NCBI RefSeq assembly: GCF_055900595.2
Contig: NZ_JBVWEU010000003.1
Direction: 5' to 3' (one strand)
Length of the DNA: 64,000 bases
From: a plasmid
A program made the translations under genes and the position numbers. Below the pieces are notes generated by a model. It made no database searches, was not told where the DNA came from, and saw only the letters and a program-made list of their open reading frames with translations. Positions 6,025 to 64,000 of this stretch are shown here, one piece after another (within the stretch, counting starts at the first letter, position 1; each line of letters begins with the position of its first letter).

Positions 6025-6400
6025 CGGTCGCGCCGCCCCTGTCGCGCCGGAAACGGCGCTCCCTGCACACCTGACGGTGTGTAAGGCCACTGCGCCTGAT
6101 GGCGCAGTTGTCTGCCCTTCCGCCGCCACCCCTGCGGCCTGTTTCCCGCTGTGGACTTTCCGGGGGCTGAAGCGGCCACAACACGTTTCAGCCGTCCAGG
6201 GGAGAGATGTACCAGCCACAAAACTTTTTGCCGCAGGCGTCAAAAACTTTTGCGTCTGCCCCCGGACAACTGCCCCGTGCCGTGGCAGTCGCTGCCCCAT
6301 CGGAAAGGTCCACTGCGGGGAGAAACCCCGAAGAAGTGGACGGCAGAAGGGGCTTTCGCCCCTCCGGGGAATAACCGGTCGGCCCGGCGACCTGATTCAG
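6025..6400 (+). promoter_or_regulatory. ssi/Frpo-like single-strand promoter element (repeat copy B)
   Basis: About 370-bp GC-rich non-coding element, near-identical in blocks to 8895-9255; several short hairpins (ACACC-TGAC-GGTGT, CTGCGCC-TGAT-GGCGCAG, GGGGC-TTTC-GCCCC); directly upstream of a + strand gene block. Confidence 0.6.
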
Positions 6401-8894: not shown

Positions 8895-9255
8895 CTCCGG
8901 TCGCGCCGGATGCGGCGCTCCCTGCACACCTGACGGTGTGTAAGGCCACTGCGCCTGATGGCGCAGCTGTCTCTGCCTGTCTGCCGCCGCACTGCGGCCC
9001 GTTCTCCGCAGACGGACTTTCCGGGGGTACATACACGACCACATCCCGTTTCAGTCGTCCAGGGGAGAGATGTACCAGCCACAAAACTTTTTGCCGCAGG
9101 CGTCAAAAACTTTTGCGTCTGCCCCCGGACAACTGCCCCGTGACGTGGTGAGCGTCCCCCGTCGGAAAGGTCCACTGCGGGGAAATCCCCGAAGACCCGG
9201 ACGGCAGAAGGAGCTTCGCTCCTCCGGGAAATGACCTGGCTGACCCGGCAGTCGT
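8895..9255 (+). promoter_or_regulatory. ssi/Frpo-like single-strand promoter element (repeat copy C, oriT-proximal)
   Basis: Shares long near-identical blocks with 6025-6400 (for example GCGCTCCCTGCACACCTGACGGTGTGTAAGGCCACTGCGCCTGATGGCGCAG and CAGCCACAAAACTTTTTGCCGCAGGCGTCAAAAACTTTTGCGTCTGCCCCCGGACAACTGCCCCGTG). Confidence 0.6.
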
Positions 9256-14061: not shown

Positions 14062-16362
14062 TCAGTATTTTTCGTCAGTTGTTGGTTGTGCTCCACATGA
14101 TTTCTGGGGATGATCATTATTTATTGTCTGCGATTTATTATTTTCAGCGACCGGTAACAGTATCTCCAGGGGGAGCAGGGTATTCAGAATCGCCTTCACT
14201 GAAGGTATATCTTCAGGACCGGAGTGTTCCTCTTCCGGACGATTCAGTGTGATATAACATACCCGGCGTTCTTCCCTGGTTGTGTTATTGATAGTGTGCA
14301 CAGCCTTTTTCCACAGTTCGTTTGCCCGGGATTCGATATCTGTATCATATTGCGGAAGCAGATCCAGTGATGTCTGCGCTGTTGCCAACCGGCGCTGGAA
14401 TGTATCAATGATACGGTAAGGCTCTGTACGGTTTTTACGACGTTTACGGGATGGTTTTGCTGTCAGTACACCAATAATGCTGCTGACATGCTCCGGTGTG
14501 GGAAAACGGCGCTGCACTGTCCTGGGGACAAGACGGCGGAGACGTTCCAGTCGGGGGGCTTCAACAGAGATATAACGGTTGATGACCACTGGATCACTGT
14601 CGCAACTTTTTTCGCTGTCCGGAATATACACAGAGGCTGACGGCACCACATCCCCCTGGAAAACGGTAAAGAATTCACCGGCATTCAGTTTGATTAAATC
14701 CTGCACGTTGATTTTGCTTTCCATCTGGATTGTGATCTGGTTACCGTCCACCCAGGACTCTCCCATCACACCATCGTGGCGCTGCAGGCTGCCCATTCTG
14801 GCGCGGGCCTCTTCACCGGCGGCATTTTTCACCGTCCTTGCTGTTTTGTCGTCACTGACAATGCGTCCGGCGAATTTGGTGCCGGCGTTCTGCATCAGCG
14901 TGGCGGTGTTGGTGGCAGAAGTCTGCCCTTCGATTCGCTCCTGATCCTGCGCCGTCATTATCAGGGAGAACTCCAGTGAACGTACCTGGGTGGCCTCCAC
15001 TGCAATGCGGTCCGTGTAGTAGGCACCGACTTCGTCAAGGATACAGATATAGGGGAAGCGGCCTTTGTATTTTTTGACTTCCAGGGTCTGTGCATCTGTG
15101 CCTTCCAGGCGGTAGCCCAGGTCACGGGCGAGGATCATGCTCTGCTGGGTGATGAACATACGACCGAGTGCCGACGTGGTATGGGCTGATGTGTCCAGTG
15201 CGGGGATCATCACAATCAGAATTCGGTCGCTGTGGATACTGTCGCGAATATCGATGTCGCCGGCATCTGCCGCAAAGACGTCCCCGAAGGTTTCGGCAAA
15301 GGTTGTGAACGTTTCCGAGAACTGACCGGAGAGATAAGCATGCTGTTTACGGGGCTCCTCAGTCCAGGCTGACGGCGTTCTCACCAGTGACATATCGAAT
15401 CCCGGGACATCCTGCAGGTAGTTTCGCAGTGGTGCGATAGCTTCTTCCGGCCACTGGTCATCAAGGCCACGGCAATAGAGTTTTGCCATCCCTTCCAGCG
15501 TCATATGTTCCCGTAACATATGCAGGGACATGGTTTTACCTTCCCGGACGCACCAGAATTTTGTGCCAAAGACCAGGGCCTTGTTCATGGCTATCGCCCG
15601 TGACTGCCATTCACCGCCCTGAACGTTCTGGGGCAGCATGGACTGCATGGTTTCGGCGGTGAAGGCTTCGGTGCTGAATGCGAACGGGTTCCAGGTGTTT
15701 GACTGTGGGCGGGATTTATCGCCACTCTGAATGACTTCACTGCGGGATTTTCCGCCGTTCATGAAGTTGATGACCTCGATATCATCCTCCCGGCCAAAAC
15801 GTCGGGAGAGATACCAGATTGTCCTCGTGGTATCGTTCTGTGCCTTTCCGTCAACAAAGGTAAAGCCTCTTCCCCAGCAGAGCGGGTTGAGCAGCCAGGC
15901 AAAGGTGGTTTCTGTTTTACCGCCACCGGTGGTGGAAAAAAATATGATATGCCGGGTGAGGTCATCCATGCTCAGCCAGAGCTCACGACCGATATCGTTG
16001 ATACGGCGGTAACCGACATAAAAAATCCCCCGTGCGGGGGATGTTTCATCTGCTTCATACTGAAACAGGGTAGGCCAGAAGCTGAAGAGGCTTCGCCTGA
16101 CCTTTCTGTCCTGGGAGGGGTCATCAAGGCTGAGCGTCATGGGCATACGCAGGGGGCATCGCCAGCGTTGCAGCGTGAATATCACGGAGGTGACCAGGGT
16201 GAACAGCAGACAGACAGGAAGGGCCAGTGGCCATATCAGGGCCGTAATGATACTGCCAGCCAGACACAGACCAATGATGTTCAGGTTGTGCAGTGCATTC
16301 CACAGCGGGTTTCCCCAGGCCGTGCGGTGTATGAGGTCAGGATTAACGTGATGCTGGCTCAT
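14062..16362 (-). CDS. trbC: Type IV coupling protein TrbC (DotL/IcmO-like ATPase)
   Basis: 766 aa; N-terminal TM helices; Walker A FFSTTGGGKTE; position next to nikB. Confidence 0.85.
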   Translation of the reverse strand: MSQHHVNPDLIHRTAWGNPLWNALHNLNIIGLCLAGSIITALIWPLALPVCLLFTLVTSVIFTLQRWRCPLRMPMTLSLDDPSQDRKVRRSLFSFWPTLFQYEADETSPARGIFYVGYRRINDIGRELWLSMDDLTRHIIFFSTTGGGKTETTFAWLLNPLCWGRGFTFVDGKAQNDTTRTIWYLSRRFGREDDIEVINFMNGGKSRSEVIQSGDKSRPQSNTWNPFAFSTEAFTAETMQSMLPQNVQGGEWQSRAIAMNKALVFGTKFWCVREGKTMSLHMLREHMTLEGMAKLYCRGLDDQWPEEAIAPLRNYLQDVPGFDMSLVRTPSAWTEEPRKQHAYLSGQFSETFTTFAETFGDVFAADAGDIDIRDSIHSDRILIVMIPALDTSAHTTSALGRMFITQQSMILARDLGYRLEGTDAQTLEVKKYKGRFPYICILDEVGAYYTDRIAVEATQVRSLEFSLIMTAQDQERIEGQTSATNTATLMQNAGTKFAGRIVSDDKTARTVKNAAGEEARARMGSLQRHDGVMGESWVDGNQITIQMESKINVQDLIKLNAGEFFTVFQGDVVPSASVYIPDSEKSCDSDPVVINRYISVEAPRLERLRRLVPRTVQRRFPTPEHVSSIIGVLTAKPSRKRRKNRTEPYRIIDTFQRRLATAQTSLDLLPQYDTDIESRANELWKKAVHTINNTTREERRVCYITLNRPEEEHSGPEDIPSVKAILNTLLPLEILLPVAENNKSQTINNDHPQKSCGAQPTTDEKY

Positions 16363-17467
16363 TGTGATTATCCTCGGTATCTGTGGCTTTCAGGAACAGG
16401 CTGACGGTAGTGGCGTCTTTCAGGATGCCGGACGGCAGGTGCCAGCCGGTATCGGATAACACCCATGGGGTACCGCCAAAACCGAACTGGCGGAAAGCCT
16501 GGTTATTGACATCGATGGCAGCACGAGCAGCGGTCAGACACTTTTCATCCGGTGCAGCCGGTGCATCGACGGTGGGTGCCATACCACCGTCTGCGGAATA
16601 CAGCTGATGCCATCCGGTCGCCCGTTTTTGTGCGTCCGGTTCACACAGCAGTGGCGCAGTCCGGTTTGTGCTGGCCTCTCCGCCGATTACGGAGACCGGA
16701 TAAATCACCACGCTGAATTCCCGGGCCAGTTGCTTAAGCGCGGGCTCCAGAAGACGGCAGTTGATGCATGCGGGGTCAAGGAAGGCGTAGAGTGTGCGTT
16801 CATGACCAGTGGAGAGATTAATGGTGAACATACCCCGGTCCGCGTTGCGTTTAAGTACTGTGGACAGATTACGGCGGGCCTCAGCGGCCTGAACGTGTTG
16901 TTCTTCCGTCACTGCCGTCGGGGCGGGGGCAGAAGAAGGTTCCTGCTGTGTGGGAGCCGGGCGGGCCGGGATGCTGTTAACATGATGTTCCGTATGTGGG
17001 CGTGGTGTCTCTGTGTCGGTTACTGGTTCAGCTCTCCATTCCTGAGATGTAGGGTAAGCCAGCGTGGAAGGGGGCTCTGCCTTCATCCAGTGGTAACCTG
17101 CAACTGTCGCCGGCAGAGCAATTCCGGCGATAAAGCCACACATCAGTGTCCGCCAGAAGCCATATTTCCGGGAGGGATGTTTTCCTTTTCCGGCATATTC
17201 GGCATCCAGGCAGGCATCAATCGCTGAGAGCATTCTGCCGATGTGATGTCCGGGACGTTCTGCATCAACGGTATCAACAAGCACCGTTTCGGTTATTTCG
17301 CGAAAAGGGGAACTGAAGGACAGGTGCATCAGCCTGTTATTACGGTTAATCAGTGCGCCCAGTTCTGTTACCGGCAGGATGGCAATCACCTCCCGATTAC
17401 CGTCAGGGTACAGGGCGGTCAGGGACAGGTGTTTATTATTCAGTGTTGCAGTGTAGTGGATGGTCAT
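16343..17467 (-). CDS. trbB: TrbB, thioredoxin-fold disulfide isomerase-like transfer protein
   Basis: 374 aa; CxxC motif (DPACINC) in the C-terminal domain; position between trbC and trbA. Confidence 0.8.
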   Translation of the reverse strand: MTIHYTATLNNKHLSLTALYPDGNREVIAILPVTELGALINRNNRLMHLSFSSPFREITETVLVDTVDAERPGHHIGRMLSAIDACLDAEYAGKGKHPSRKYGFWRTLMCGFIAGIALPATVAGYHWMKAEPPSTLAYPTSQEWRAEPVTDTETPRPHTEHHVNSIPARPAPTQQEPSSAPAPTAVTEEQHVQAAEARRNLSTVLKRNADRGMFTINLSTGHERTLYAFLDPACINCRLLEPALKQLAREFSVVIYPVSVIGGEASTNRTAPLLCEPDAQKRATGWHQLYSADGGMAPTVDAPAAPDEKCLTAARAAIDVNNQAFRQFGFGGTPWVLSDTGWHLPSGILKDATTVSLFLKATDTEDNHNEPASR

Positions 17468-18825
17468 TGTTCTTTTTCCTTGTCGGCGGGATCCTGTTTT
17501 TCGGTGGTTTCGGTGGTTTCGGTGGTTTCGGTGGTTTCGGTGGTTTCGGTGGTTTCGGTGGTTTCGGTGGTTTCGGTGGTTTCGGTGGTTTCGGTGGTTT
17601 CGGTGGTTTCACCAGTGTCAGTGTCTTCGTCGTTATCATGGCGGCGGGGTATCACGTCATCCGTGAGTGACCAGCGGGTCCTGATCTGACGTTTACGATC
17701 GCGATCTGGCTGAGGTTCGTCCCATATCAGGCCCAGCCCCAGCATGTCCCGTCGAAGCCCTTCAATGGCCTCTTCCACACAGGGTTCCGGGCAGGGGAGG
17801 CCGAGACGGCTGGCTTCATTTTCTGCCCGGGCAACGGCCACCACGCCGGCCCCTTCGATGAAGCCTTTTGTGGTGTTTGCCCGGTGAAGGGCATAGAAGA
17901 GCGTCCGGTCAACGCCCTTGAGCCACAGCCAGTTCGGAGGCGTCAGGCGCAAATCATGTGCGTAAAGCCAGACCAGACCGCTGCGAACGTAACGGTGCTG
18001 CCTGAGCCACTTTTGTGCGCCTTCTGTTTTGATGACCCGGATAAAGGCGTTTCTGGCCAGTGAATACACCGGCGTGCTGAAACGCCCCTGGTCCCGTTTA
18101 CTTTTGAGCCTGCAGGAGAGATTGAGGTTGTTCATCAGGGCTACCGCTGCTTTCCGGTCACCGAGGAAGAACTGCAGGCCAAAGATGGCAAAGAGCGCTT
18201 TTTCATGTGGGGCCATGTCTTTCCAGCTGGTCAGTGGTTGCCCCAGTTGCGCCATGAAGCACTGGCGTGTGGACGCAACATCGAGCTGCATGTTGCGGAT
18301 AAGGTTGTTCTGCTCCACAAAGGCTTCGGGGGTTAGTGCGACACGGCGCTCGGGACGTTTTTGTCCGTGGAAGAGTCTGTTGTTGTCTCCATCAGCCAGA
18401 ACGGGGGCGATCGCCGGTGACAGAGCTGAAAAAATATGGGGCAGTGTGTGGATATTCAGTGGCCTGCGGGTAAAACGGGGCTGGGCCGGATGGTGAAACC
18501 ACATCCACAGAAAGCCGAATGTCATGGGAAGCAGAATCAACCAGAGGATCCCCACTGTCCGGGACATAACATCCAGCCACTGGCTGAAAGTGATGGTTGC
18601 CGCGTTGTTAGCAGTGATGGCCAGCAGGTTGTAACGGGGGGCGGCAAAGTTGTGAAAGGGCCCCCAGTCAATCATGCCCCACAGTGTGTGCAGGATCAGG
18701 CAGGAGGCGAAGACGATTTCAGGTAAAAAGCGCCAGATGATAATCGCAAAGAGCAGGCATATGGCACCGACGATATACCATATAGCCATTGGATCTTCGG
18801 CGGCAGACGTCTGTTGGTAAGACAC
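17464..18825 (-). CDS. trbA: TrbA (DotM/IcmP-like inner-membrane transfer protein) with a C-terminal (TTE)n tract
   Basis: 453 aa; multiple TM helices at the N-terminus; C-terminal acidic tail containing TETTETTE... repeats. Confidence 0.8.
   Translation of the reverse strand: MSYQQTSAAEDPMAIWYIVGAICLLFAIIIWRFLPEIVFASCLILHTLWGMIDWGPFHNFAAPRYNLLAITANNAATITFSQWLDVMSRTVGILWLILLPMTFGFLWMWFHHPAQPRFTRRPLNIHTLPHIFSALSPAIAPVLADGDNNRLFHGQKRPERRVALTPEAFVEQNNLIRNMQLDVASTRQCFMAQLGQPLTSWKDMAPHEKALFAIFGLQFFLGDRKAAVALMNNLNLSCRLKSKRDQGRFSTPVYSLARNAFIRVIKTEGAQKWLRQHRYVRSGLVWLYAHDLRLTPPNWLWLKGVDRTLFYALHRANTTKGFIEGAGVVAVARAENEASRLGLPCPEPCVEEAIEGLRRDMLGLGLIWDEPQPDRDRKRQIRTRWSLTDDVIPRRHDNDEDTDTGETTETTETTETTETTETTETTETTETTETTETTETTEKQDPADKEKEQ
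17497..17613 (-). repeat. Perfect 9-bp tandem repeat (TTCGGTGGT on +, about 13 copies) encoding the (TTE)n tract of TrbA
   Basis: Directly visible: ggtggtttcggtggtttcggtggtttc... repeated without interruption. Confidence 0.9.
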
Positions 18826-18961
18826 GGGGATTCCTCCATAGATGAATGGATAAATTTCGGGATTAAGTCGGGTGGCATGAATGCGAATCAGCGCCGGTAA
18901 TAACCGGACAGGAATGAGTTCAACAGGACATTTTCACAGAGAAGAGCGTGGGAGACAGGTA

Positions 18962-18992
18962 CAAAAAAACCGACTGGTGAGGTCGGTTTTTT
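18962..18992. terminator. Bidirectional-looking terminator hairpin
   Basis: AAAAAAA-CCGACC-TCACCA-GGTCGG-TTTTTTT between the trbA start and the nuc end. Confidence 0.5.
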
Positions 18993-19482
18993 TGCTATTC
19001 CGGGGCGGAGTTGGTGACTCTGACCGAAAGGGAAATCACTCTACATCTAACACCATCATAGTAGGCTGCGCTTCTCTTTTTTGCAATCAGAAAAATGACT
19101 ATAATCGCTCCGTTAGCTCTGTCTGGTGATGCTTCTGCCCTTTAATAAAATATGCTCAGGTTAAAAATCGAAAACCTTCCTGCACTTCCTGTGCCTGTTC
19201 CCGTGAGTCAAACATGAGCCGGCTTTTACCCGGAACTCCCCAGGAAATATATTCTACATCCACCCACCATTTTCCGTATTCTTCATATGGTCCGGATATC
19301 ACTTTAGTGACAAATGCATCAACCAGGTTCATTTTTACACCTTTCTGTTATTCTGCTTATTACGACCAGCAGACAGCAAATATTAAAAATAACGCGGCGG
19401 TAAAAATGGCAATTTTTTCCCATACTGTATTTTTTCCATTTATTTGCTTTGAAATGTTTTTTTGCTTCATATCAGTAAATGA

Positions 19483-35548: not shown

Positions 35549-38500
35549 TCATCGGCCGGGGCTGTGAGATTGTGCCTGTTGCAGAGTTTTTTCCTGCCTG
35601 TCCTCCGCCTTTTGGCTGTCAGACCACTCTTTCCAGGTCTGCTCAAAACCCAGAGAGCGGAAAAGCTTGTCCGGCTGCTCTTCCGGTTTATGGATGGCGG
35701 CAAACAACGGCGTATCCTGTTGCTTCAGGTGAAACTGCATCATTTGTGGGGCCGGACGCTGATGAGTATTCTCATCGTGGTTGACAGCTTCACCGTAGCC
35801 GGCAAACTGCAGACCGTTATCCGTCAGTGCATTGATGACCAGCTGACGGTTGTTTGTTGTCGGGGTGGCCAGTGCCGGGTAGAGGGTGCCGTTCAGACGG
35901 ACCACTCCCTGCAGATGCTCATCTGCGCTGTGGACCAGCAGAAGATTCAACTGACGATTGTCCTTATCGGCGGAGGCGACGGCAGGAATCAGTTCATCGG
36001 GGGCTTTACCAGCGAGGGGGAGTCGCATTGATTGATCCTGAGGTTCTGATGCAGGTTGCCTGTCTTCACCAATGTACAGATTATTGGGAGGATTTTTGGG
36101 GGAACGAACTTCCTGCATTATCTGTGGCCAGTGTTGCTGCATTTGTGACATTACCTGACTGAATGTTTTCATCGGAAATTCCAGGATATGCTGACCAGCA
36201 TGAGGAAGGTCATTATCGACGGTAATGCCGTTACTGACAGGAGTCATGGCCCAGATATTTCGCACCCATTCCGGTTTGCCCGGTGATGAAGGTGATCTCT
36301 CCCGGGCCTGCAATGTCAGCGTGACGGGGTCGCCTTTCTGGTGGTTTTTGACCAGTTCTTCCAGGCCTTTTCCCCAGTATTCCCGTTTGCCACTGCGGTT
36401 GGTGAGCTCCACAAAAAAGCAGCGCCCTTTTCCGGGCGCATACTCTTTTTCTCCGTAGTTTGTCAGGACGGCAGTCACACTTTCACCGGGGCTGAGCTTG
36501 CCGGGCGGCTCTTCCTCCGGTGTGTCGGGTTGCTGCGGCTGTGCACTGACAGGGGCTTTTTCTGGCGCTGACGACGGGGCGGCTGGTTGTTCCGGTCTGT
36601 CGGCCCGGGGGGCTTCAGCTTTTGCCGTGACCGGCGCTTCCGGATGCGGTGTTTCAGCCGTACTGCCTGCTGTTTGTTCAGCCTCTGCCTTCGGTGACAC
36701 AGGGGGTTCCGGTTGTGCCATTGTTGTTTCTTCCGGTGACTGGCGGTTGAGTTCCGGCGTGGGTCTGTGGGTGACAATGGCATCATGCACCATCTCTTTT
36801 TCCTTGCGGAGTTTTTCCAGTGCTGCCCTCTGGGCCGGGAGTTTCATGCGAACCTTGATGTCGTATTCGACAATCAGCTGCATGGCTTTTTGTTTAAAGG
36901 CATCACTGCCGGTCAGCTCGATAACGCCGCCATAGAAGTTGGTGGCCACAGCAAGGGCAGCCAGAACCTTTTTGTCATCCGCGCTGGCACCATCCACCAT
37001 TTCGAGACAATAGAGTCTGTCCAGGAAGGCTGGTTCGCCGTCAACACGGAAGAGCGCTGTCCTGTCGGGAAACTCTTCGTGCTCAAGATTTTTAATAATC
37101 TCGTCCAGGTTGTGCCGCTGCGGACTGTCGGGACGGCGGGGCGCAAAGATAATCGTGTCCGGTTCCGCTGACGATGTGTCTTCCGGGCTGTTTTCCGGTG
37201 GTGATGGTGGTGCGACCTCCTCTGTTGCTGTTTCAGCCTCCGTGGGCTTTTTCTCCTGAATAACGGAAGGTTCTGAGGTGCGTGATTTCCCACCGGTCAG
37301 AAAACGGCGCAGACGGCTGAAAAGCGATGGCGTTTCAGGGGGGGCTGCTTCATTCGCTGTGCTGGTCTCAGTGGCGGACACAAGACGCTCTTCCTGCAGT
37401 TTATCTTCAGCCGTCGGTTCAGCGGTGGCCTGCCGGACTGGCTGAGTTTCTGCTGGTTCAGAAGGTGAGGCTGTTTCTGCTGTGCCGGTGTTGTGAACAG
37501 TGGCAGCAACCGTGGCATCGGCATTGAGCTCCTCAGGCGGTGCGTCACGGTTGTTATCGGGGACGGCAGAGGCACTCTTTTCACTGGTATCCGTTGCAGA
37601 CAGAACATCCTCTTCCTGCGGTTTATTTTCTGCCGTTGCTTCAGGGGTTGCCTGCTGAACAGGCTCAGTCCCGGCAGGTTCAGAAGGTGAGGCTGTTTCT
37701 GTTGTATCGGTGTGGTGAGCCGTGGTCATCACAGTGGCATCAGCGTTGAGGTCTTCCGCAAATGCGCTCCAGTCGTCAGCGCTGGCCATGGAGACCTGCA
37801 GTTGTTCTTCAGTCTGCGTTGTGGTGGTGTGCTGTGTCCCGGTCGCGTCGGAGACGGAGGTTTCCGGTGTGTCGTCACCTGGGGAGAGCTCTTCTGCCTG
37901 TACGCTCTGGTTGTCAGCGGTGGTGGCAGAGGCATTTTTTTCACCGGTATCAGCGGCAGGTATAACGCTCTCCTGAGGTTTGTCTTCTGCTGTTGGTTCA
38001 GGGGAGGACTTCTGAACAGGCTGAATCTCTGCAGGTTCAGGAAGCGTTCCTGTTTCTGCTGTGTTGGTGTTGTGAGCGGTGTCTGTACCTGTGGCGTCTG
38101 TATTGAGGTCTTCCTGGTCGCCAGCGGTAGCCGCAGAGGTATTCTCTGTGCCGGTATCAGCGGCAGACGCAATATTCTCCAGTGGTTTATCCGGGGATAA
38201 CGTCTCCGTAGTTACTGACTGCAGGGATGCATAGGCGGCATAGTCATCTTCATATGCCTGGTTTTCTGTCTCTTCAGTGTGGATGTCATAAGGCGTATCC
38301 GGTGTCGCCAGCACCGTTTCCGGGGCTGTGCTCTGTTTGTTTTCAGGGGACATTTGTGGCTTCTCATCTTTTACCGGTGTGAATATCAGGTTGCCGATCA
38401 CGACAGCCTCACGGTGGTCGGCAGTGTCACTGTTGGGTGTGGGGATACCGATATGTTTTAACTGTGCGTTCATGACATGCTGAAAGTCGTCCCGTCCCCG

Positions 38501-39580
38501 GCTGGCGTCCAGGTCATTGAAATCGGTCAGTCCCTGTGCTTTTTCCTCCTCCGTAAAGGCCGGAATAATGACTTCGCCATTCGTGACTTCTGCGGCTTTT
38601 GTTGCACTAAAAACCCCCTTGTTAATTTCCCGTTGATGATCGTTGTCGGCACAGAAGACAAAGGGGCTGTCAGTCCAGATTTGGCGGGCATTTTCTGCCA
38701 CGGCAATCATATTGCCGGCATCAACTGTCATCAGAACCGGAAGGCCGGTGGCTTCGTGCAGGGAGGCGGCAGTAGCGTAACCTTCCGCAAATAACAGGGG
38801 ACGGCCATTTTCCGGGGTTCCGAAGGTGAACCAGTTGCCGGTTTTCTCGGAGTCTTTCAGAATGCGGGCATCCTTCCCGCCGGTGACCGGAATACGCTGG
38901 TACGAACGTATTTCCCCCCGGCCGTTGCTGAAGGGAATAACCAGCTCATTTTTATTGTTCAGCCGCACGCCAGGCGCGGCCCGGATGCCCTTGCGCGTCA
39001 GGTATTCATGTGCTGTTGCCTGTGGCAACCCGTTAATATAGGAGCGGGCATACCGGGCCTGTTTGTTGTACTGTTGCTGCAGTTTACGTGCGTTATCATC
39101 GCGCTGTTGCTGAGCGAATGCCCGCAGATGCAGTCTGGCCAGAGGATCGTGTTGTTCTCCGCCGGAAAATACCCAGTTTGTGGGACTGTCATCGGCGCTC
39201 CGGTAGTCGCGGTACCAGCCAGCGGGGCGCCCATCAAGATAGGCTTTGTATGCGCCACTTTTGGCCCCTTTTTTGTCATCCCGGGTGGCGACTCTGTGTA
39301 TGGCGCCATCCATCTGTGGCAATCCCTGAATAACCAGCCCGGCGTTTTCCAGGACCTGAGCAAATTCGGTGACCGGATCGCCGGCATCCATCGACAGTTC
39401 CTGCGGCCGGGGTAACCAGCGCTCCAGCAGAGAAAGTTCGGTACCTGCCCGGGCATACCAGAGTTTTTTTTCTGGATCCCATGCGACAGCTTTGCGGCCA
39501 TTTAACGGGGGTACTGCATTTTTTACGGCTTCTGTCTCCTCAGGCGGGACAGCAAGCCAGGTACGATATCTGGACTTCAT
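35549..39580 (-). CDS. sog: Sog DNA primase (TOPRIM primase transferred to the recipient), with an internal low-complexity repeat linker
   Basis: 1343 aa; N-terminal primase/TOPRIM-like region (LLFAEGYATAASL...FCADNDHQ); position between traL and traK as in R64. Confidence 0.85.
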   Translation of the reverse strand: MKSRYRTWLAVPPEETEAVKNAVPPLNGRKAVAWDPEKKLWYARAGTELSLLERWLPRPQELSMDAGDPVTEFAQVLENAGLVIQGLPQMDGAIHRVATRDDKKGAKSGAYKAYLDGRPAGWYRDYRSADDSPTNWVFSGGEQHDPLARLHLRAFAQQQRDDNARKLQQQYNKQARYARSYINGLPQATAHEYLTRKGIRAAPGVRLNNKNELVIPFSNGRGEIRSYQRIPVTGGKDARILKDSEKTGNWFTFGTPENGRPLLFAEGYATAASLHEATGLPVLMTVDAGNMIAVAENARQIWTDSPFVFCADNDHQREINKGVFSATKAAEVTNGEVIIPAFTEEEKAQGLTDFNDLDASRGRDDFQHVMNAQLKHIGIPTPNSDTADHREAVVIGNLIFTPVKDEKPQMSPENKQSTAPETVLATPDTPYDIHTEETENQAYEDDYAAYASLQSVTTETLSPDKPLENIASAADTGTENTSAATAGDQEDLNTDATGTDTAHNTNTAETGTLPEPAEIQPVQKSSPEPTAEDKPQESVIPAADTGEKNASATTADNQSVQAEELSPGDDTPETSVSDATGTQHTTTTQTEEQLQVSMASADDWSAFAEDLNADATVMTTAHHTDTTETASPSEPAGTEPVQQATPEATAENKPQEEDVLSATDTSEKSASAVPDNNRDAPPEELNADATVAATVHNTGTAETASPSEPAETQPVRQATAEPTAEDKLQEERLVSATETSTANEAAPPETPSLFSRLRRFLTGGKSRTSEPSVIQEKKPTEAETATEEVAPPSPPENSPEDTSSAEPDTIIFAPRRPDSPQRHNLDEIIKNLEHEEFPDRTALFRVDGEPAFLDRLYCLEMVDGASADDKKVLAALAVATNFYGGVIELTGSDAFKQKAMQLIVEYDIKVRMKLPAQRAALEKLRKEKEMVHDAIVTHRPTPELNRQSPEETTMAQPEPPVSPKAEAEQTAGSTAETPHPEAPVTAKAEAPRADRPEQPAAPSSAPEKAPVSAQPQQPDTPEEEPPGKLSPGESVTAVLTNYGEKEYAPGKGRCFFVELTNRSGKREYWGKGLEELVKNHQKGDPVTLTLQARERSPSSPGKPEWVRNIWAMTPVSNGITVDNDLPHAGQHILEFPMKTFSQVMSQMQQHWPQIMQEVRSPKNPPNNLYIGEDRQPASEPQDQSMRLPLAGKAPDELIPAVASADKDNRQLNLLLVHSADEHLQGVVRLNGTLYPALATPTTNNRQLVINALTDNGLQFAGYGEAVNHDENTHQRPAPQMMQFHLKQQDTPLFAAIHKPEEQPDKLFRSLGFEQTWKEWSDSQKAEDRQEKTLQQAQSHSPGR
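37330..38190 (-). repeat. Three tandem copies of a roughly 225-bp unit inside sog, encoding a Thr/Ala/Glu/Pro-rich linker
   Basis: Protein repeats of the form LNADATV.TAH.T.TAETASPSEPA.T.PV.QAT.E.TAE.K.QEE; the many overlapping antisense ORFs in the track here are repeat artefacts. Confidence 0.7.
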
Positions 39581-63290: not shown

Positions 63291-64000
63291 GATTTACGCA
63301 CTCTTGTAAGCCTTGTGGACGGTTTCGAGGCGGGCGAAAACCGACAACTCCTGCAAACAGGATTAATGGCTGGAAAATATATTACATAAGGATGTATCTG
63401 TGGCAAGAGTTAATATAAGTAGTTGAATAGATCGTTATATTTGATAAATCAGCATATCATGCTGATTTGTGTGCAGTGTCTGGAGGATTAGATCGTTTAA
63501 AAATTTTAGGCGATCTCTTCTACTAAAAATGATGAAAAATACAGCATAAAAGATCGTTTGTGAAATTGTTCATTTTTTGACACAGTTCAAAAAAACGACG
63601 CTTTTTCGGGGAGTTAAAGAGGGCCACTGTAACCCTGAGAAATCATGTCGGCTTTTCAAAGCGGTGGAAAAGGGGTATATTGCGGATCGTTATGCAGTGG
63701 CTTTTGGGATCGTCAGGATCCGGGAAGTCAGAAAACGGCAGGATGCGCCATAAGGCATTCAGGACGTATGGCAGAAACGACGGCAGTTTGCCGGTGCCGG
63801 AAGGCTGAAAAAAGTTTCAGAAGGCCATAAAGGAAAACCCCCACTATCTTTCGTCGAACTTTGGCGGGATCGTGAAAGATAGTGGGGGCCTCACAGAATA
63901 CGGGATAAGTATATATGAAACCGTGTCAGAGATTCAACCCTTTGCAGTGCATTAACGCACGGCAATTTGTTCCCGCCATAAGCGACAGCTTGTGGCGGCC

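Follow-up and report, generated by a model that had tools for sequence, protein, structure and literature searches.

A 9-bp in-frame tandem repeat of variable copy number in the acidic tail of TrbA from IncB/O/K/Z-type plasmids

The trbA array and described tandem repeats

Variable-number tandem repeats (VNTRs) that lie within coding regions and change by slipped-strand mispairing are known from the X-region of Staphylococcus aureus spa, the Ser-Asp repeats of clfA and clfB, the multiple-locus VNTR analysis (MLVA) loci of Enterobacteriaceae and yeast FLO1. A second class of unstable repeats is found in the phase-variable contingency loci of Neisseria, Haemophilus and Campylobacter, in which simple sequence repeats cause on/off switching by frameshift or by altered promoter spacing. 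Here we describe a perfect 9-bp tandem repeat inside trbA, a conjugation gene, in a 64,000-nucleotide stretch of plasmid DNA (contig NZ_JBVWEU010000003.1, assembly GCF_055900595.2; the whole stretch is called the window, and all coordinates refer to it). We consider it quite probable that this array is a hypermutable in-frame coding VNTR, a 9-bp minisatellite, located in a tolerant, disordered acidic tail of an IncB/O/K/Z-type TrbA.

The trbA repeat resembles the known coding VNTRs in its perfect head-to-tail units with a length that is a multiple of 3, in gains and losses of whole units, in copy numbers that differ in otherwise identical backgrounds, in its location in a low-complexity, predicted disordered stretch and in its usability for typing. 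Most of the bacterial examples, however, are present in surface or secreted proteins, where the length affects exposure or antigenicity, whereas the trbA repeat lies in the predicted cytoplasmic tail of an inner-membrane conjugation subunit and is carried by a mobile element. It would share with the contingency loci a repeat-mediated hypermutation confined to one locus and a heritable, reversible diversity. In contrast to them, the 9-bp unit keeps the frame and changes no promoter or ribosome-binding site (RBS) spacing, and its effect would be graded at most.

Literature searches with the repeat sequence, as peptide and as DNA, and with trbA in combination with IncK, IncK2, IncZ and tandem-repeat terms gave no description of the trbA repeat. 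The only repeats discussed in the matching passages of the IncK and IncK2 papers are the 19-bp sites of the shufflon and the 13-bp inverted repeats flanking a blaCMY element. Coding VNTRs are well known as a phenomenon, and this instance in trbA is without prior description in the searchable literature.

The features of the gene are as follows.

17464..18825, minus strand: trbA, encoding a 453-aa protein of the DotM family that belongs to the coupling complex of type IVB (I-type) conjugation; GTG start (open reading frame (ORF) list, Pfam, orthologue annotation).
17752..18273, minus strand: DotM_C cytoplasmic domain of TrbA, residues 185-358 (PF23127).
17467..17703, minus strand: acidic tail at the C-terminus of TrbA (residues 375-453), predicted to be disordered and containing the repeat (AlphaFold2).
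17499..17610, minus strand: perfect 9-bp array of 12.4 units, with the (TTE)12 codons at 17500..17607 (Tandem Repeats Finder, lag-9 scan, translation).

Tandem Repeats Finder returned a single array at 17499..17610, with a period of 9, 12.4 copies, 100% matches and no indels. The unit reads TTTCGGTGG on the plus strand and GAAACCACC on the coding (minus) strand. In a lag-9 scan of the window we observed 103 self-matches in a row at this place; as the probability of such a run is roughly 0.25^103, the array is not due to chance. It was also the sole perfect tandem repeat in a self-match scan of the whole window (period 2-39, ≥3 copies, ≥24 bp). The array is in frame within the 453-aa ORF and encodes (TTE)12, residues 407-442 close to the C-terminus, so that the tail reads ...DNDEDTDTGE(TTE)12KQDPADKEKEQ* (the stretch before the TTE tract is written SLTDDVIPRRHDNDEDTDTGE). 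The initial annotation of the window had placed about 13 copies at 17497-17613, in frame within trbA. The ORF list, the translation and the DotM_C domain agree with that gene and frame; the extent was essentially right and only slightly generous, with 12 full TTE triplets, or 12.4 units of DNA. As that annotation had also stated, this is not a clustered regularly interspaced short palindromic repeat (CRISPR) array: both Tandem Repeats Finder and the sequence give contiguous 9-bp units with no unique spacers between them. An Rfam scan of the whole window gave no match at the repeat.

Copy number among related plasmids

A 901-bp query spanning the repeat matched 481 plasmids in PLSDB and plasmids in 380 of 5,426 complete RefSeq E. 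coli genomes (∼7%). We derived copy numbers from the length of the matched span relative to that of the query for 109 distinct PLSDB records and 59 RefSeq E. coli plasmid rows. In the PLSDB sample, the length difference was divisible by 9 in all records but one (108/109), and the whole range of 1-13 copies was represented without a gap, with a mode of 6. The RefSeq sample behaved similarly (59/59 multiples of 9; range again 1-13). Taken together, 167 of 168 length differences were whole 9-bp units. We also read 19 homologous loci directly; the arrays of 1 and of 4-13 units consisted of perfect GAAACCACC units, and all the alleles read stay in frame. Twelve copies, as in the window, occurred in only four of the sampled records (pE600029_86, NZ_OZ474914.1, pDV45 and NZ_CP141242.1), the first two being the 12-copy alleles closest to that of the window, and 13 copies occurred in another four.

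The repeat also varies where its surroundings do not. We compared 3,317 gap-free aligned columns of flanking sequence (3' trbC, trbB and the body of trbA) with the repeat masked. Plasmids pO26-Vir (7 copies), p86 (5 copies) and pN50a (4 copies) were 0 single-nucleotide polymorphisms (SNPs) apart over these columns, the unnamed3 plasmid of AR_0067 (8 copies) was 1 SNP from this group, and pL2-87 (6 copies) was 6 SNPs away. Similarly, pDV45 (12 copies) and an Escherichia sp. plasmid (9 copies) were 0 SNPs apart, with pMS1170_1 (13 copies) 1 SNP away. One clade therefore has at least three repeat changes against at most one substitution in 3.3 kb, which, as a rough estimate, suggests a per-locus rate of repeat change orders of magnitude above the per-site substitution rate. 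A single copy number across related plasmids, the outcome that the initial annotation had set against its prediction of length variability, was clearly not what we found: the comparison gave 1-13 copies, in whole units and also between identical flanks.

The nearest relatives of the window plasmid are typed IncI1/B/O, IncK2/Z or IncI-gamma/K1, with MOBP and MPF_I, and the window itself carries a relaxase, tra genes and a repZ pseudoknot; it is an I-complex plasmid. The acidic extension with the repeat is specific to the IncB/O/K/Z-type lineage, because the IncI1/R64-type TrbA (402 aa) is devoid of the tract. This TrbA (Furuya & Komano 1996, as cited in PMC10286972) is an orthologue in a trbABC operon of the same gene order, with ∼76% identity over the body (P0003). 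It ends in ...WSLTDDVLFRTPATDNEF (also written ...WSLTDDILPRPPATDHEF), and in an IncI1-type locus (L004) a 17-bp gap separates trbA from trbB in place of an ATGA overlap. Relative to R64 TrbA, the IncB/O/K/Z tail, DNDEDTDTGE(TTE)nKQHPADKEKEQ, replaces and extends the C-terminal end in a lineage-specific manner.

A diverged clade of large plasmids from serotypes of Shiga toxin-producing E. coli (STEC; e.g. O111), ∼93% identical, has imperfect arrays of only 2-5 copies. Their units are GAAACCACC or GAAACCACT, with one GAAATCACT (ACC to ACT, and ATC), and they have another 3' junction (ETRHPADKEKAQ); the variant units are mostly synonymous (ACC to ACT). Since pure arrays reach high counts and the imperfect ones 2-5 copies, these data fit the view that purity of the repeat drives its instability. 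Single-unit arrays, found in two of the plasmids read (ETTETR... and ETTEKQ...), may be collapsed or proto-repeat states. Among the best 150 DotM_C family members from 1.84 billion representatives searched, the only other perfect peptide repeat was EIP x3 in P0123.

The trb region is also mosaic. The 901 bp around the repeat are 99.9% identical to those of AR_0067 unnamed3 (L001), while over the 3.3 kb of trbC/trbB/trbA the window is ∼100 SNPs from the same plasmid, and its closest relative there is an IncK2/Z plasmid (L003) at 43 SNPs; this difference implies recombination within the trb operon. In the collections searched, no plasmid was ≥99% identical to the window over 22 kb, and the best 22-kb matches were ∼98% identical.

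The TrbA tail and the interpretation of the array

The neighbors of trbA on the same strand follow in the order trbA, trbB, trbC.

16343..17467, minus strand: trbB, DsbC/thioredoxin-like (ORF list; weak Pfam Thioredoxin_2; annotated as 'DsbC family protein' in relatives).
14062..16362, minus strand: trbC, DotL-like type IV coupling protein, the partner of TrbA (NF041447 TrbC_conju, Pfam TraG-D_C).

The Pfam DotM_C model (PF23127) matched TrbA over residues 185-358 with E = 2.6e-47 (161.7 bits against a cutoff of 27), and trbC scored 1009 bits on NF041447 (cutoff 800). RefSeq orthologues with the same start are annotated as 'IncI1-type conjugal transfer protein TrbA'. On the NCBIfam DotM_IcmP equivalog model (NF033890), however, TrbA scored 71.5 bits, and because this is well under the cutoff of 230 we place it as a conjugative TrbA within the wider DotM_C family and not as a DotM equivalog. 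The end of trbA and the start codon of trbB share an ATGA overlap. This start is located 35 nt past the repeat, and trbB is translationally coupled to trbA through the overlap.

DotM (IcmP) of Legionella pneumophila, a member of the DotL-DotM-DotN complex (PDB 6EXB and 6SZ9), is a subunit of the type IVB coupling complex, and dotM is located upstream of dotL (PMC5802825). The same paper reports 23% identity between R64 TrbA and DotM, and states the function of TrbA as unknown. The window TrbA has the DotM_C domain and a basic cytoplasmic domain, is encoded upstream of a DotL-like ATPase gene, and aligns with DotM from end to end (phmmer; TrbA residues 4-358 with residues 9-362 of the DotM chain). 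The similarity is nevertheless distant, with a phmmer E of about 1e-7 (E = 1.7e-7 to 2.8e-6 for the DotM chains in the PDB). The assignment of TrbA to the coupling complex in the initial annotation agrees with this domain, with its place upstream of the DotL-like trbC and with the role described for DotM (PMC5802825). The solved full-length DotM chain (380 aa) has 18 residues past the aligned domain, whereas the window TrbA has ∼80 acidic, predicted disordered residues that include the VNTR.

AlphaFold2, run on TrbA with a 31-sequence alignment, modeled the transmembrane helices and DotM_C confidently, the latter as an all-helical domain with a predicted local distance difference test score (pLDDT) of about 80-95. 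Over residues 375-453, on the other hand, the pLDDT was 27-39 (<50), and apart from one 3-residue helical turn there was no secondary structure. The tail of ∼80 residues beyond the folded domain is therefore predicted to be disordered, and the tract sits in the C-terminal tail past DotM_C, as had been proposed. By homology with the C-terminal domain of DotM, this tail should be cytoplasmic. Residues 120-384 carry a net charge of +15 (40 K+R against 25 D+E; pI 10.3), while the last 69 residues, from W385, carry −19; the net charge of the tail ranges from −8 with 1 unit to −20 with 13 units. Among the best 150 representatives of the DotM_C family, the C-terminal tail can be as short as 8 or as long as 277 residues, often with an acidic, low-complexity composition. 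Because of this wide range, the tail region appears to be evolutionarily permissive.

Tails of other kinds were also seen. Outside the IncB/O/K/Z lineage, the tail of enterobacterial TrbA proteins is mostly short and acidic, with Phe as its last residue (GDDDSPF, DGDEESPF, ATDNEF), and resembles the C-terminal tip of SSB, DDDIPF; the window TrbA has lost the terminal Phe. More distant DotM_C proteins (P0053, P0057, P0063 and P0175) have long acidic disordered tails with a net charge of −10 to −35. Elsewhere in the window, a primase-like ORF of 1343 aa (35549..39580, minus strand) contains degenerate repeats at 37362-37528 and 37584-37750, ∼74 aa apart, which are rich in Thr/Glu/Ala/Pro (e.g. 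HHTDTTETASPSEPAGTEP) and have an acidic, T/E-rich composition like that of the TrbA tail. We take this ORF to be Sog, a protein transferred in conjugation (our own reading; no family search was run).

The following mechanism would account for the variation. During replication, slipped-strand mispairing would shift the nascent strand against its template by whole 9-bp units; recombination between unequally paired sister copies is a possible alternative route. Each event would add or remove one or more Thr-Thr-Glu triplets. As 9 is a multiple of 3, no event disturbs the frame, and the last 11 residues, the trbA stop and the start of trbB that overlaps it are all kept. trbA is never switched off, and only the length of the tail (1-13 TTE) and its charge (about −8 to −20) vary. 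Since the tail past DotM_C would tolerate a change of length, the copy number could drift quickly within a bounded range. No hairpin was predicted for either strand of the array DNA (minimum free energy (MFE) of 0 kcal/mol, z > 0, no better than shuffled sequences), which fits simple misalignment. We infer slippage as the mechanism, and near-neutrality of the changes in tail length.

A hairpin or cruciform was dismissed on the MFE of 0 kcal/mol on both strands. On/off phase variation was dismissed because the 9-bp unit keeps the frame and the repeat is located upstream of the trbB RBS, whose predicted accessibility stays constant.

Several observations weigh against a neutral, hypermutable VNTR. 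The range is bounded, with none of about 168 sampled plasmids above 13 copies, and acidic tails recur on conjugative DotM/TrbA homologues; both could reflect selection on the charge or the length of the tail. The variability was read from comparisons between public plasmid records. Although 473 of the 481 matching PLSDB plasmids are typed conjugative, including the 1-copy (L003) and 13-copy (L002) plasmids that we read, this typing is a MOB-suite prediction and not a mating assay. Copy number is also constant in some clusters: five 119,787-bp plasmids from sheep faeces and many Shigella sonnei plasmids all have 6. The rate of repeat change is therefore moderate, not extreme. The locus is hypervariable but not chaotic, which is the behavior wanted of a typing marker.

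The strongest of the rival explanations, though in our judgment an unlikely one, is that the acidic (TTE)n tail acts on the basic DotM-like domain, or on TrbC or DNA, as an intramolecular pseudo-substrate or by electrostatic regulation. Slippage would then yield plasmid variants that differ in substrate recruitment or transfer efficiency, and the repeat would tune conjugation as a graded contingency locus. In Legionella, basic patches of DotM bind C-terminal peptides that are acidic and rich in Glu (PMC5802825), and residues 120-384 of TrbA are likewise basic, set against a tail whose negative charge follows the copy number. Acidic disordered C-terminal tails recur in TrbA and DotM_C homologues, both short and Phe-ended and long, and the copy number seems to have an upper limit of 13. 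In the I-complex cluster-2 plasmid pMS7163B, a trbA::Cm mutation abolishes conjugation, which is restored by complementation in trans (PMC10286972), so that trbA is essential for transfer in that plasmid. The presumed Sog of the window, as a transferred primase with acidic T/E-rich repeats of like composition, can be counted on the same side. However, only one of the five Arg residues of the Glu-rich-binding patch of DotM is kept in TrbA (R314, by phmmer alignment to 6sz9_B); R196 and R197 fall in an insertion, R217 is opposite D203 and R315 is opposite T, the alignment being of low confidence in the first two regions. This sparse conservation weakens the idea of self-binding by TrbA. The EKT-repeat peptide Lem8 did not bind DotM, and the paper also notes a role of sequence specificity (PMC5802825). 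Moreover, the TrbA of IncI1/R64 functions although it has no such tract, and natural plasmids retain every length between 1 and 13 units, none of which stands out as a sharp optimum.

A more specific form of this regulation, which we regard as improbable, is a slippage-driven 'rheostat' in which the number of TTE units sets how far the tail occupies the basic, substrate-binding surface of the DotM-like domain, or competes with the acidic, T/E-rich parts of transferred proteins of the Sog type. If this were true, plasmid populations would continuously yield variants in transfer efficiency or substrate choice, and the graded contingency locus would reside on a mobile element and not on the chromosome of a pathogen.

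We consider it very unlikely that the repeat acts as a nucleic acid, either as an unstructured A/C-rich mRNA leader for trbB or as a DNA element (iterons, or a structure of the G-rich strand), with the tail as a by-product. The short distance of 35 nt to the trbB start, the coupling of trbA and trbB through ATGA, a repeat mRNA predicted to be about 80% unpaired, and the GG-N-GG-N4 periodicity on the plus strand (direct reading of the sequence) would be in its favor. ViennaRNA partition functions, on the other hand, gave a constant predicted accessibility for the trbB Shine-Dalgarno/initiation region (0.76 and 0.79) over 0-16 copies, and control of trbB translation initiation by copy number was rejected on this ground. 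As the repeat is upstream of the RBS, the Shine-Dalgarno-to-AUG spacing of trbB is unaffected. The lack of folding in either DNA strand argues against this role too, as do the mostly synonymous variants of the STEC clade, which suggest that the peptide is conserved rather than the DNA word. To our knowledge, contiguous 9-bp units without spacing are unlike known iterons, and the iteron reading was rejected on the anatomy of the array.

An artefactual polymorphism, by assembly collapse or expansion of the 112-bp repeat or by long-read indel errors, can practically be dismissed: although short-read assemblers can mis-size perfect repeats longer than a read or k-mer, and the 82-bp difference of a single PLSDB record (CP061248.1) is not divisible by 9, the sampled differences otherwise keep to strict 9-bp steps that random long-read errors would ignore, a typical read is longer than these arrays (9-117 bp), records obtained independently within one lineage are in agreement (the sheep-faeces and S. 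sonnei plasmids mentioned above), and the older finished plasmids pO26-Vir (7 copies) and pL2-87 (6 copies) both have the array.

Plasmid typing and other features of the window

IncB/O/K/Z and related I-complex plasmids spread extended-spectrum β-lactamase (ESBL)/AmpC genes as well as other resistance and virulence genes in E. coli and Shigella. A repeat that varies while 3.3 kb of its flanks stay identical offers a cheap, high-resolution plasmid marker, and PCR sizing or a simple assembly script could be used to tell plasmids apart or to connect them when outbreaks are traced, also in a One-Health setting. Although the biological surprise is modest, the data also mark the tail of a TrbA/DotM subunit as a permissive, acidic, predicted disordered region and provide a natural allelic series of 1-13 units for asking whether tail charge matters in the recruitment of substrates.

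The variation also calls for a warning, as the repeat alters the length of the protein and its product name in the Prokaryotic Genome Annotation Pipeline (PGAP), may affect protein clustering, and could be mis-sized in short-read assemblies. The RefSeq/PGAP product name of trbA orthologues shifts with the number of units. Those with 9 or fewer are named 'IncI1-type conjugal transfer protein TrbA', those with 10 'conjugal transfer protein TrbA', and from 11 units on the name is 'secretion/conjugation apparatus DotM-related subunit' or, in pDV45 with its 12 units, 'hypothetical protein'. A threshold of the naming rule is apparently crossed as the repeat grows.

Other features of the window were observed at a distance from the array. 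Rfam identified an AgrB antisense RNA at 18961..19050 (minus strand; 50.4 bits, gathering score 40). It lies ∼135 bp upstream of trbA and is probably part of a DinQ-like type I toxin (dqlB) module. Two dqlB copies are present in several relatives, and the window lacks ∼1.1 kb in comparison with pE600029_86. In the leading region, on the ssb/psiB/ardA side, we found a direct repeat of ∼350 bp with 86% identity (6038..6388 and 8897..9249), of which pE600029_86 has a further related copy; these repeats may be single-strand promoter or initiation elements. At the end of the window, a PK-repZ pseudoknot (63830..63979, plus strand; 167 bits in Rfam) marks the control region of an I-complex repZ replicon.

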